Positions 1 to 3,692 of a stretch of 3,692 bases of DNA are shown piece after piece (position 1 is the first letter of the stretch; each line of letters starts with the position of its first letter). A program made the translations under genes and the position numbers. The notes beneath the pieces were generated by a model. The model ran no database searches. It was not told the DNA's origin and saw only the letters and a program-made list of their open reading frames with translations. The stretch is taken from IMG/VR virus record IMGVR_UViG_2671180417_000023. One strand, given 5' to 3'. This DNA is from a virus. Taxonomy: Duplodnaviria; Heunggongvirae; Uroviricota; Caudoviricetes.

Positions 1-1335
1 CGATGTGTTTACGGGAAAAAAATCGGCCCAGATCCGCGAAATTTTAATCAGCGAGTCAGCTTGGGAAGAAATGACCTGCTTATTCGCACCTTCCCTAACG
101 CTGGCGGCGGAAATATTACCGATCGTGGTGAAGGATTCAAACATGATAAGACATCACTCGCACGAGATGTAGCCACCGGCGTTCTGGCCCGTTCAATGGA
201 TGTGGATATTTATAACCTGCACCCAGCACACGCAAAACGCGTTGAAGAAATCGTGTCAGAGAATAAGCCGCCCTTTTCTGTTTTTCGCGACAAATTTATC
301 GCCATGCCCGGTGGGCTGGATTATTCCCGCGCCATTGTGGTGGCTTCCGTGAAAGAAGCACCAATCGGCATTGAGGCCATCCCGGCACGCGTGACTGAAT
401 ATCTCAACAAAGTGTTGACCGAAACCGATCACGCTAACCCGGATCCGGAAATCGTGGAAATTGCCTGCGGTCGCTCATCAGCACCGATGCCGCAGCGCGG
501 AACAGCAGAAGGAAAACATGGCGATGAAGAAAAGCAACAAACATCGGACACAATGGCTAATGAACAGGCAGCGCCTGAATCAGTGGAAGAAATTCCAGTT
601 AAACATAATGAGGACACGCAATCACTGGAAAATGTCTCATCTGTAGAAACGAAATACCAGGAACTGAGGGAGGAACTCAATAAAGCCAGGGAAAACATCC
701 CCCCAAAAAATCCAGTCGATGCCGACAAATTACTGGCTGCCTCGCGTGGAGAATTCGTTGAAGGCATCAGTAACCCTGCTGATCCGAAGTGGGTGAAGGG
801 GATCCAGACTCGCGACACTGAGGACCAGAATCAGCCCAAAGTGGAACAAATTGCCCCAGAAGCGGGACAAAACAGCCCGGATACGCAACAAAACGGGCCA
901 GAAGAGCAACAGCCAGGGCCAGTAATGCAACAGGAAGTGGAAAAGGTTTGCACCACATGCAGTCAGAACGGTGGCGGCCATTGCCCTGACTGTGGTCCAG
1001 TAATGGGAGATGAAACTTACGCTGAAACTTTTGGAGAAAATGACGCCGCTGATGGAGAAGACTCAGCACAAACTGAGGAGAAGATCATTCAGGAAAACTC
1101 TGTTGATGCCGCTCAGGAGGGCGAAACCGTTGTTCAGAACGAGCCAGGCAGTGATACGTCCGGCGATGACGCCAATTCTGAGCCAGTAACTCTCGACTGG
1201 AAAAGACAGCTCGTGATTGCCGCCGTCTATGGTTTGTGCGCCAACCCCGCATGTATAGCCACAGCGCCAGCAATCCCTGATATCGCCATCATGATTGCCA
1301 ACAGGCTTGAAAATTTCGAAGGTGATAAATCATGA
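1..1335 (+). CDS. Hypothetical phage early protein, 5'-partial (444 aa within window); acidic low-complexity central region with a CxxC-x7-CxxC motif and a hydrophobic C-terminal tail
   Basis: Frame 1 is open from position 1 (no stop in 1..60), so the true start lies upstream of the window; the TTG at 61 is only the first in-window start. 445 uninterrupted codons to TGA at 1333-1335. Same strand as the Red genes, and its stop overlaps the gam ATG (ATGA at 1332-1335). No family recognised by eye. Confidence 0.8.
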
Positions 1336-1628
1336 ATGCCTGGCTTATCCCCGATCGCATTGAAGAGCAGTCATGGGCACGACACTACCAGCAAATTGCC
1401 CGTGAAGAAACTGAAGCTGAGCTGGCAGACGACCTGGAAAAAGGTCTGCCCCAACACCTGTTTGAATCGCTATGCATCGATAATCTGCAACGTCACGGGG
1501 CCAGCAAAAAAGCTATTTCCCGTGCATTTGATGACGATGTCGATTTTCAGGAACGCATGGCAGAACACATCCGCTACATGGCTGAAACCATCGCCCGTCA
1601 CCAAATTAATATTGATTCAGAGGTATAA
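1332..1628 (+). CDS. gam: Host-nuclease (RecBCD) inhibitor Gam, short 98-aa form
   Basis: Translation ([26 protein letters not shown]...LFESLCID...QRHGASKK...[10 protein letters not shown]...DSEV) matches phage lambda GamS along its length as I recall it, with scattered substitutions. AAGGTGA Shine-Dalgarno at 1319-1325, 6 nt before the ATG. An in-frame TAA at 1326-1328 rules out a longer N-terminal (GamL-like) form. Lies immediately upstream of bet, as in lambda. Confidence 0.9.
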
Positions 1629-1633
1629 AACGG

Positions 1634-2419
1634 ATGAGTACAGCACTCGCAACGCTGGCAGGGAAGCTGGCTGAACGTGTCGGCATGGATTCTGTCGACC
1701 CACAGGAACTAATCACCACTCTTCGCCAGACGGCATTTAAAGGTGATGCCAGCGATGCGCAATTTATCGCATTGTTGATCGTCGCCAACCAGTACGGCCT
1801 TAATCCCTGGACGAAAGAAATTTACGCCTTCCCTGACAAGCAGAACGGCATCGTTCCGGTGGTTGGCGTTGATGGCTGGTCCCGCATTATCAATGAAAAC
1901 CAGCAGTTTGATGGCATGGACTTTGAGCAGGACAATGAGTCCTGTACATGCCGGATTTACCGCAAAGATCGCAATCACCCGATCTGCGTTACCGAGTGGA
2001 TGGATGAATGTCGCCGCGCACCATTCAAAACCCGCGAAGGCAGAGAAATCACCGGACCGTGGCAGTCGCATCCCAAACGGATGTTACGGCACAAAGCCAT
2101 GATTCAGTGTGCTCGCCTGGCCTTCGGATTTGCTGGCATCTATGACAAGGATGAAGCCGAGCGTATTGTCGGAAATACTGCATATACTACAGAACGTCAG
2201 CCGGAACGCGACATCACCCCGGTTAACGAAGAAACCATGTCGGAAATTAACGCCCTTCTTACTTCCATGGAAAAAACGTGGGATGACGACCTGTTGCCGC
2301 TCTGTTCCCAGATTTTTCGCCGCAACATTTACACATCTTCAGAACTAACACAGGCTGAAGCTGTGAAGGTTCTTGGATTCCTGAAACAGAAAGTCACAGA
2401 GCAGAAGGTAGCAGCATGA
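1634..2419 (+). CDS. bet: Red-beta single-strand annealing protein (Bet, RecT/Red-beta family)
   Basis: 261-aa translation ([66 protein letters not shown]...) is near-identical to lambda Bet as I recall it, with a few substitutions in the C-terminal third. GAGG at 1620-1623, 10 nt before the ATG. Stop TGA at 2417-2419 overlaps the exo ATG. Confidence 0.97.
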
Positions 2420-3096
2420 CACCGGACATTATCCTGCAACGTACAGGGATCGACGTGAGAGCTGTCGAACAGGGGGATGATGCGTGGCACAAATTACGGC
2501 TCGGCGTCATCACCGCTTCAGAAGTTCACAACGTGATAGCAAAACCCCGCTCAGGAAAGAAATGGCCTGACATGAAAATGTCCTACTTCCACACCCTGCT
2601 GGCTGAGGTTTGCACCGGTGTGGCTCCGGAAGTTAACGCTAAAGCGCTGGCCTGGGGAAAACAGTACGAGAACGACGCCAGAGCCCTCTTTGAGTTCACT
2701 TCCGGCGTGAATGTTACTGAATCCCCGATCATCTATCGCGACGAAAGTATGCGCACCGCCTGCTCTCCCGATGGTTTATGCAGTGACGGCAACGGCCTTG
2801 AACTGAAATGCCCGTTTACCTCCCGGGATTTCATGAAATTCCGGCTCGGTGGTTTCGAGGCCATAAAGTCGGCTTACATGGCCCAGGTGCAGTACAGCAT
2901 GTGGGTGACGCGAAAAGATGCCTGGTACTTTGCCAACTATGACCCGCGTATGAAGCGTGAAGGCCTGCATTATGTCGTGGTCGAACGGGATGAAAAATAC
3001 ATGGAGGTTTTTGACGAAATGGTACCGGAGTTCATCGAAAAAATGGACGAGGCACTGGCTGAAATTGGTTTTGTATTTGGGGAGCAATGGCGATAG
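2416..3096 (+). CDS. exo: Lambda-type 5'-3' dsDNA exonuclease Red-alpha (Exo)
   Basis: 226-aa translation ([68 protein letters not shown]...GFVFGEQWR) is near-identical to lambda exonuclease as I recall it. AAGG at 2405-2408, 7 nt before the ATG. The ATGA overlap with the bet stop matches the lambda arrangement. Confidence 0.97.
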
Positions 3097-3144
3097 CCAG
3101 TAGCAACGAGGTGCAAATGATATGACAATTAAGGAATACTACCG

Positions 3145-3396
3145 GTGTTCGTTCTAATCCAGCGCGGGCAGTCTTTCGTCGATGCCAACAACTATCCGGT
3201 TGAAGTCTGCAAAATCACTCTGACGCAGGTAATCTTCCGAAGGCTGGATGGGAGAACCAGAGCCGCTTCAATTAGCGCATTTAATGCAGAATTTGAGCGA
3301 ATCGATCACAACGAACTACACATGATTAAAGCAGAAATTGAGAAGGAAAAGCATATTGCCAGCCTTCGCAAAATGCGCCGCACATCAATCAACTGA
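3145..3396 (+). CDS. Hypothetical small protein (83 aa), unknown function, with a basic helical-looking C-terminus
   Basis: ORF with a GTG start at 3145, preceded by AAGGA at 3131-3135 (9-nt spacer) and bounded upstream by an in-frame TAA at 3130-3132. Stop TGA at 3394-3396 is followed directly by an intrinsic terminator. Same strand as the operon. No family recognised; coding status is inferred from position and signals only. Confidence 0.55.
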   Translation: MFVLIQRGQSFVDANNYPVEVCKITLTQVIFRRLDGRTRAASISAFNAEFERIDHNELHMIKAEIEKEKHIASLRKMRRTSIN

Positions 3397-3398
3397 CA

Positions 3399-3418
3399 AC
3401 CGCCTTCGGGCGGTTTTT
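3399..3418 (+). terminator. Rho-independent terminator (GC stem, UUCG tetraloop, U-tract)
   Basis: Sequence aCCGCC-TTCG-GGCGG-TTTTT: a perfect 5-6 bp GC-rich stem around a TTCG loop, then a run of 5 T, starting 3 nt after the ORF83 stop codon. Confidence 0.8.
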
Positions 3419-3449
3419 CGATGATTAAACAATTCAACTGGAGAATAAA

Positions 3450-3692
3450 ATGAACGACATTACAAAAACAAATGAAATCTTGTTAACCAAAGATATTCTG
3501 GAACGATATAAAATTTCACGAAGCACTCTGTATTTCTGGAGTACTCCAGACAGAAAGCCAAAGTCCCTCAGCAAACCATTTCCTAAACCAACAATAAAGG
3601 GAAACCCCAATCGTTGGTGGCTTTCTGATATTCTGGAGTGGGAAAGAAATAATGCTCAGGTTAATGGCGCATCAACTAACCCTTCAAGATAA
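3450..3692 (+). CDS. AlpA/excisionase-family helix-turn-helix DNA-binding protein (putative Xis or prophage regulator)
   Basis: 80-aa ORF with GGAG at 3440-3443, 6 nt before the ATG, and TAA at 3690-3692. The motifs LTKDILERYKISRSTLYFW ... PFPKP ... NRWWLSDILEWERN match the characteristic AlpA/Xis pattern (RSTIYRLI...FPKP...RWxxSEVxEWL). Its position downstream of exo corresponds to the xis side of a lambdoid early-left operon. Confidence 0.7.
   Translation: MNDITKTNEILLTKDILERYKISRSTLYFWSTPDRKPKSLSKPFPKPTIKGNPNRWWLSDILEWERNNAQVNGASTNPSR

Follow-up and report, generated by a model that had tools for sequence, protein, structure and literature searches.

An IS5-interrupted, nuclease-less relative of recE upstream of gam in a Caudoviricetes sequence

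Introduction

Which gene stands directly upstream of gam in the viral sequence IMGVR_UViG_2671180417_000023 (Caudoviricetes), and what might its product do beside an inhibitor of RecBCD? The stretch of DNA analysed here, hereafter the window, comprises 3,692 nucleotides of this IMG/VR record. Frame 1 of its plus strand is open from base 1 through a TGA at 1333-1335, and the following gam gene starts at 1332, its start codon overlapping the stop of the upstream frame in an ATGA, as had been noticed in an original prediction made from the sequence alone. That prediction took the open reading frame (ORF) for a single gene running off the edge of the window and occupying the place held in lambda by kil and cIII. 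It recognised no characterised family in the product, and considered that its long acidic part could act as a DNA mimic in host takeover or anti-defence. We show here that the ORF is a chimera, formed by one end of the insertion sequence (IS) IS5 and the last 413 codons of a gene of the RecE (exonuclease VIII) family that lacks the nuclease domain.

Results

An IS5 end fused in frame to a RecE-family gene

When positions 1-1335 were compared with phage genomes by megablast, the query split at base 94/95. The part from 95 to 1335 matches genes annotated as 'exodeoxyribonuclease VIII' that lie directly upstream of gam in several Shiga toxin (Stx) and related phages, whereas bases 1-94 match P1-like phages instead. 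These 94 bases (plus strand) are the right end of IS5, downstream of the transposase gene and in the same orientation, and are identical at 92 of 94 positions to the IS5 copy (insH, IS5D) of phage RCS47, where the match lies just 3' of insH and ends exactly where the interrupted gene of RCS47 resumes. The 16-bp terminal inverted repeat, CTTATTCGCACCTTCC, is found at 79-94, and is followed at 95-98 (plus strand) by CTAA, the tetranucleotide targeted by IS5 at this insertion and presumably one copy of the 4-bp target duplication. IS5 prefers YTAR/CTAA targets, and the intact gene reads GGTG-CTAA-CGCT at this point, with a single CTAA; the left IS5 junction lies outside the window. The IS5-derived part is present in multiple copies in 2429 of 5426 complete E. 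coli genomes, and the exact junction between IS5 and the gene was found in none of these 5426 genomes nor in any of the GTDB species representatives.

The rest of the window, from 95 to 3692, differs from a prophage of E. coli ML35 located next to sapC by one mismatch in 3598 bases. There the gene is intact, with 690 codons and the annotation 'RecE family exodeoxyribonuclease', and base 95 of the window falls inside its codon 278. Positions 95-1335 (plus strand) are the 3' 60% of this nuclease-less RecE-family gene, from within codon 278 to codon 690 and the stop, and the copy in the window has lost the first 277 codons together with its own start. Since the IS5 end covers 1-94, the ORF owes its first 31 codons to IS5, which is in frame by chance. 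Intact copies of 682-690 codons are carried by the ML35 prophage, PhiR5_2, phiSTEC1589-Stx1c and 75/02 Stx. The open frame on the plus strand from 1 to 1335 therefore stands as originally described, but not the single gene running off the edge; likewise, what had been taken for an N-terminal region of about 140 amino acids of ordinary composition consists of 31 IS5-derived residues and a conserved helical domain (residues 283-415 of the intact protein).

A RecE relative without the nuclease domain

Contrary to the view that no characterised family is recognisable, the intact 690-residue protein matches NF007259, the NCBIfam equivalog of exonuclease VIII, with an E-value of 7e-223, although only over positions 1-598 of 877. 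The intact protein scores 742 bits and the window ORF, which covers positions 253-598, 485 bits, both below the equivalog cut-off of 1269. By BLASTP against RecE of the K-12 Rac prophage, residues 51-635 align to RecE 43-578 (E 4e-179, 51% identity), and the folded core within the part kept in the window is about 90% identical to Rac RecE. The only Pfam domain of the intact protein is PF06630 (E 1.4e-12), which lies upstream of the IS5 cut and is therefore absent from the window, and no Pfam family matched the window ORF. In particular, neither the intact protein nor the window ORF has a Pfam match to the PD-(D/E)XK domain PF12684, which is matched by the paralogues P0125 and P0136. The nuclease domain of RecE comprises residues 564-866, and the N-terminal region of RecE (residues 1 to about 563) is without known function (PMC11611040). 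Because the alignment to RecE ends at 578 and PF12684 is not matched, the protein lacks the nuclease domain that RecE requires. The window ORF also matches PHROG 607 ('exonuclease VII', sic) with E 4.7e-129 over profile positions 266-617 of 883; this family is named for nuclease activity, whereas the profile beyond about 617 is unmatched here.

Several traits are nonetheless common to both proteins: a four-cysteine knuckle (CNACGQTGGDNCPDC in RecE), the motif RGEFV.GIS.P.DPKW, and an upstream gene order running from kil through small ORFs to the gene itself. They differ in that RecE carries a nuclease domain where the present protein has a conserved tail of about 45 amino acids with two predicted helices, and in that recT stands behind Rac recE, whereas here gam, bet (of lambda Beta type, with a RecT Pfam domain) and lambda exo follow. 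In nucleotide sequence, identity to Rac recE is 88-90% in the central part of the gene; the 5' third (the first 250 amino acids) has diverged strongly (synonymous divergence, dS, about 2.6), and similarity fades about 250 bases before gam. These nucleotide comparisons show a mosaic gene when Rac recE is the reference, a pattern that suggests recent exchange between genes with a nuclease end and genes with the present tail.

Distant relatives of Rac and Gifsy-1 RecE that lack the nuclease have been described under the name 'RecE-2' in early left operons of lambdoid phages, with no role assigned, and DnaQ-like nucleases have also been reported in such modules (PMC12315714, Genome Res 2025). By description, the intact gene corresponds to 'RecE-2', being related to RecE, devoid of a nuclease domain and located in a lambdoid early left operon; it departs from it in that the paper speaks of distant relationship, whereas the centre of the present gene is close to Rac RecE, and the copy in the window is moreover cut by IS5. 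These comparisons show that the gene is already known, and that many E. coli and Shigella genomes carry it in their annotation with an enzymatic name that misleads. In GenBank and RefSeq, proteins of 680-700 amino acids without the nuclease domain (L003 5169-7241; P0001-P0119) are called 'exodeoxyribonuclease VIII' or 'RecE family exodeoxyribonuclease'.

Position of the intact gene in the early left operon

In the intact relatives the gene order is N ... kil, an ORF of 128 amino acids, the 690-codon gene, gam, bet and exo. The gene shares with lambda kil and cIII the operon and a location upstream of gam, but does not take their place as had been supposed, as kil is present as a separate gene upstream, and kil and the 128-residue ORF directly precede it. 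In phiSTEC1589 a YdaE-like zinc protein is also encoded behind kil. The gene constitutes an extra Rac-like element between kil and gam, in an arrangement whose left side is Rac-like (kilR, ydaE, racC, recE, recT) and whose right side is that of lambda Red. A large acidic protein of the early left operon, translationally coupled to gam, was correctly foreseen.

The joint between the tail of the gene and gam is present in 79 of the 5426 complete E. coli genomes. In IMG/VR, all proteins with this tail (hereafter tail-type) that are at least 48% identical to the present one are encoded directly before gam, the two genes overlapping by 3 or 25 bases, and bet and exo are then present behind gam in most of these loci. 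In eight loci with about 56-62% identity (L057, L061, L062, L064, L065, L068, L069 and L079), gam follows without BLAST-detectable bet or exo, and a different annealase may be used there.

Parts of the protein and selection acting on them

We predicted the structure of the intact protein with AlphaFold2 from an alignment of 23 family members. Confident parts are residues 1-87, of mixed alpha/beta structure, residues 145-265, helical, and residues 290-410, helical with a predicted local distance difference test (pLDDT) above 90. The last of these corresponds to a predicted six-helix core domain at 109-507 of the window (plus strand; residues 283-415 of the intact protein), where conservation within the family is highest. 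It is followed at 508-1182 (plus strand; residues 416-640) by the acidic region rich in D, E, Q and P that had been pointed out originally, whose 225 amino acids include 52 D+E and 16 K+R, for a net charge of -36 and a pI of 4.1. Its apparent disorder was likewise reproduced by the model, which predicts it to be largely disordered, with pLDDT below 50 at residues 415-456 and 513-641. Within this stretch of low confidence, a helix at 458-476 forms one island that stands out, and residues 487-510 form another. The latter includes a linear motif of 16 residues at 745-792 (plus strand; residues 495-510), an island of conservation within the disordered region with a local pLDDT of 83-86. The CxxC-x7-CxxC pair that had also been noticed is present at 949-993 (plus strand) and is probably a small zinc knuckle, zinc binding being read from the cysteine pattern.

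Pairwise ratios of nonsynonymous to synonymous substitution rates (dN/dS) were calculated for intact copies among themselves and against Rac recE, and for the tail among phage copies only. They amount to 0.07-0.14 in the core (residues 278-415), 0.26-0.33 in the acidic region and 0.20 in the tail. On these estimates the intact gene is under purifying selection in every region, and since the values stay at 0.07-0.33 throughout, the gene would be functional when intact. The acidic region is the least constrained and most indel-prone part, with indels even among close relatives, and is not conserved in distant family members. Its embedded elements behave differently: the four cysteines are the same in all of four phage copies and in Rac RecE, with variable residues in between, and CxxC-x7-CxxC was found in 12 representatives; the linear motif, as RGE[FY]V.GISDPxDPKW, is present in 32 of 150 family representatives, including proteins with the present tail, with a PD-(D/E)XK end and with a DnaQ-like end. 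By its pattern of conservation, this near-invariant linear motif bears the mark of a site that docks onto a conserved partner. Both it and the tail persist among proteins with about 25% overall identity.

The C-terminal tail at 1183-1332 (plus strand; residues 641-690) is hydrophobic, as first described, with a grand average of hydropathicity of +0.42. Two helices are predicted in it, at residues 646-660 and 670-688, with pLDDT of 60-72. The consensus of such tails is LTYxQQLTIAALQGLCANPAxxxxxDDIPxMAxxLA, in which 22 representatives with an overall identity of only 21-65% all retain L, A, A, G, N and P, and this invariance over 22 diverged proteins argues that the tail is not junk. The copy in the window, with IPDIAIMIA, fits the pattern [LI]x[IL]AAxxG[LM]CANPA x6-8 [DE][IL]PxxA, two predicted helices at the end of the protein. 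Each of these 22 tails gives a match to the C-terminal end of PHROG 26058, a family of unknown function, with an E-value of 0.0049 for the present tail and down to 2e-16 for others. A search of PDB sequences with the intact protein and a profile of the tail returned nothing meaningful. We also considered that the tail could be a transmembrane helix, and rejected this by inspection, as its two short helices are broken by N, P and D and polar or charged residues occur in distant homologues. Concerning an origin from a separate small gene, tblastn in phages places the tail only at the ends of large ORFs, and this candidate was set aside as well; in a word-index search, short tail ORFs were mostly annotated as partial exonuclease VIII or lay on very short contigs, those on long contigs being a 54-residue ORF of Enterobacter and a 79-residue ORF of Serratia.

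Distribution and C-terminal types of the family

A HMMER search of 1.84 billion representative proteins returned only 209 relatives at E up to 1e-3, and all family members with a recorded source are from Enterobacterales. Distant members share mainly the core (query residues 264-425). We sorted the 83 representatives of at least 450 amino acids by the pattern of their C-terminal ends: 22 have the same tail as the gene of the window, 16 a RecE-type nuclease end, 13 a DnaQ-like 3'-5' exonuclease end and seven a fourth conserved ending with the motif YLxGRLRRL, the other 25 having other ends. For tested examples, Pfam recovered PF12684 in P0125 and P0136, and PF16473 in P0123, P0145 and P0152. 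In the latter three the N-terminal region of RecE is fused to a DnaQ-like (PF16473, Rv2179c-like) nuclease, whose polarity is opposite to that of the 5'-3' PD-(D/E)XK nuclease; P0157, P0159, P0161-P0163, P0169, P0174, P0202 and P0229 are of the same DnaQ-like type. Toward its C-terminal part, another representative, P0193 (756 amino acids), matches positions 145-193 of the RecT-family domain PF03837, a partial match that may reflect either fused genes or an artefactual frameshift.

Distant tail-type proteins were found in prophages of Buttiauxella, Citrobacter, Lelliottia and Cedecea, and on 13 IMG/VR contigs. In eight GTDB loci the tail-type gene is flanked on one side by a small CxxC ORF and on the other by a long ORF near the end of the prophage. 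The CxxC ORF, of about 65 amino acids, is located directly upstream of the tail-type gene and often overlaps it (L008 5762-5959, L009 5082-5282, L010 5091-5315, and equivalents in L012-L014); it has no Pfam match, and its position is like that of the zinc-binding YdaE in Rac. In the Buttiauxella prophage (L008 7449-7987), a regulator of the Rrf2 family and a DUF1187 ORF lie between the tail-type gene and xis, in the place taken by gam-bet-exo in the E. coli phages.

Other genes of the window

The genes that follow the chimeric ORF are all on the plus strand. At 1332-1628 is gam, encoding a lambda-type inhibitor of RecBCD (PF06064, E 4.8e-65 over the full length of the profile, positions 1-98 of 98; PHROG 259). 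It is followed by bet at 1634-2419, for a single-strand annealing protein of the RecT family (PF03837, E 8e-33), and by exo at 2416-3096, for a lambda exonuclease family protein with a YqaJ domain (PF09588, E 4e-30), bet being annotated as Bet, and exo likewise annotated, in both ML35 and PhiR5_2. A small DUF4222 ORF at 3145-3396 (PF13973, E 2.8e-15; PHROG 285) precedes an excisionase-like helix-turn-helix ORF at 3450-3692, whose stop is the last codon of the window; it matches the excisionase family PHROG 1553 (E 4.5e-26) and is annotated as a helix-turn-helix regulator in ML35. In ML35 the adjacent integrase is encoded on the opposite strand and overlaps the 3' end of this last ORF, and in PhiR5_2 the integrase and the excisionase-like ORF are on the same strand. 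Most E. coli matches end at window position 3418, which places a module boundary there.

Discussion

The explanation that best accounts for the locus as a whole, joining the identity of the gene, an accessory role of its intact product and the degraded state of the present copy, is in our judgement likely. Concerning this copy, it is very probably a pseudogene fragment. The alternative, that the ORF is expressed as an IS5-RecE hybrid or as an N-terminally truncated and still active protein, could appeal to a frame that is open over the junction and stays so for 44 more codons into IS5, and to the core domain, motif, knuckle and tail that are all kept in the fragment. However, the IS5-derived part of the frame contains no ATG, the only candidate starts there being a GTG at -71 and a TTG at 61, and the first in-frame ATG of the gene part is at 196, all three without a Shine-Dalgarno sequence; moreover, no sigma-70-like promoter was found in 1-1400, and an in-frame junction is expected by chance in one case out of three. 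We regard such a product as very improbable.

The IS5 transposase gene reads toward the phage genes, and gam-bet-exo now lie behind the IS element and not directly in the pL operon. Elsewhere, too, the RecE-family gene is interrupted by IS elements. On one IMG/VR contig (L075, 1-99) an end of an IS3-family, IS1203-like element is followed by the gene from about residue 549, and on another (L038, 1-30) the gene begins at residue 48 behind what we take to be an IS1 end. Two further contigs, L050 and L073, are also listed among those with IS-cut copies or remnants, and tail remnants of 75-97 amino acids annotated as 'partial exodeoxyribonuclease VIII' occur in Shigella and E. coli (including P0255, P0281 and P0244), one of them on 62 contigs. 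The IMG/VR contig L049 has the same 3' end as the window, and intact gene sequence at its start.

What, then, might the protein do when intact? In order, it comprises the PF06630 domain, a helical region, the six-helix core, the acidic disordered region with the motif and the four-cysteine knuckle, and the two-helix tail in place of the PD-(D/E)XK nuclease, and its gene, set between kil with the 128-residue ORF and gam-bet-exo, is translationally coupled to gam. We tentatively propose that the protein could serve the recombination module of the phage as a non-catalytic accessory or scaffold, one that would position or regulate the processing of DNA ends as its core domain, linear motif and tail contact other proteins. 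This proposal follows from the repeated joining of the N-terminal region to nucleases of two unrelated folds, from the location of the gene in the position of a recombination module, and from the homologous region of RecE, which modulates the type of recombination event: in Rac RecE the N-terminal region is not needed for nuclease activity and raises linear-linear recombination, and it is used empirically for this boost in RecET direct cloning.

Several observations weigh against this explanation. BLASTP searches of 21 loci (eight prophages of GTDB species and the 13 IMG/VR contigs), scanning 1.8-6 kb downstream and the plus strand upstream with Gam, Bet and Exo of the window, K-12 RecT and the RecE nuclease region as queries, detected no gam, bet, exo, recT or RecE nuclease beside the distant tail-type genes; Pfam, applied to two loci, showed that what comes next there is small ORFs, an excisionase (L008) and an integrase. 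The lack of recombinases beside these distant relatives implies a role that is not strictly dependent on the Red proteins. The functional part of the explanation is conjectural, and no fold match was found for the protein. As for the copy in the window, an IS5-mediated deletion may have taken place instead of a simple insertion, the other junction and the 5' 831 bases of the gene lying outside the window, and a low-level, N-terminally truncated product may be made from a fragment that retains core, disordered region and tail.

The conserved tail also invites a more specific view, namely that the protein is an adaptor whose tail, perhaps with the motif, binds a separate nuclease or DNA-end factor in trans, as RecE does by fusion; Red phages would supply lambda Exo/Bet as this partner, and elsewhere an enzyme of the host would serve. 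The tail is strongly conserved and stands exactly where paralogues have the unrelated nuclease domains PF12684 and PF16473, and in phages of the E. coli/Shigella type gam is always directly behind the gene, with bet and exo in most. However, the distant tail-bearing proteins lie in prophages without BLAST-detectable recombination genes nearby, so that any partner would at least sometimes be a host protein, and a tail specific to Red Exo/Bet is weakened as a candidate by these same proteins, which have no adjoining Red or RecT genes. We consider such a recruiting adaptor rather unlikely. About as speculative is a broader notion, in which tail-type RecE relatives would form a distinct class of hub proteins of the early left operon, whose tail and motif would dock onto conserved host proteins such as a nuclease, SSB or RecBCD, either hijacking a host nuclease for phage recombination or neutralising a host factor. 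At the other extreme, the gene could be a decaying remnant of recE that lost its nuclease when the gam-bet-exo cassette recombined in and is functionless even when intact. A centre with 88-90% DNA identity to Rac recE and an end of similarity about 250 bases before gam do look like a mosaic joint, and the gene is often struck by IS elements. Yet selection is purifying in all regions including the tail, an unchanged tail motif is kept by proteins of other genera whose overall identity is about 25%, and the tail type is the largest recognisable C-terminal class of the family. These selection and conservation data already largely refute the remnant, which we hold to be extremely unlikely.

An anti-defence or host-takeover protein whose long acidic region mimics DNA, as first proposed, appears improbable as well. 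In its favour are the location within the early left operon, its translational coupling to the anti-RecBCD gene gam, the strong acidity (net -36 over 225 amino acids) and the distant relatives without recombinases, which leave room for a role outside recombination. In characterised DNA mimics, Ocr, ArdA and Gam among them, carboxylates are arrayed on a rigid fold. The present protein is, like these mimics, acidic, phage-encoded and early, and lambda Gam is even the product of the next gene, but it has no sequence or fold similarity to them, and its acidic part is predicted to be disordered and not a rigid DNA-shaped surface. Moreover, this part is the one that tolerates indels, is least constrained and is not conserved in distant members, and the homologous stretch of RecE is a linker to the nuclease. 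PADLOC returned no match, and neither PADLOC nor the PDB and fold searches gave any pointer to an anti-defence role. The original prediction had named homology to a characterised protein, or a disrupted frame, as grounds for abandoning it, and both were found here, in the homology to RecE and in the IS5 disruption at codon 278; its observations are partly confirmed and its interpretation is partly supported.

As posed, the finding matters little, being a broken copy of an annotated gene whose nuclease-less form is already in the literature. The enzymatic names given to nuclease-less proteins of 680-700 amino acids are of wider consequence, as they mislead functional inventories of prophages. 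Returning to the intact protein as a putative accessory of phage recombination, the N-terminal two-thirds of RecE have been a long-standing small puzzle, for which the tail and the linear motif offer handles in the hunt for partners. Should tail-type relatives indeed be hubs that dock onto host factors, this would explain what the N-terminal two-thirds of RecE are for.

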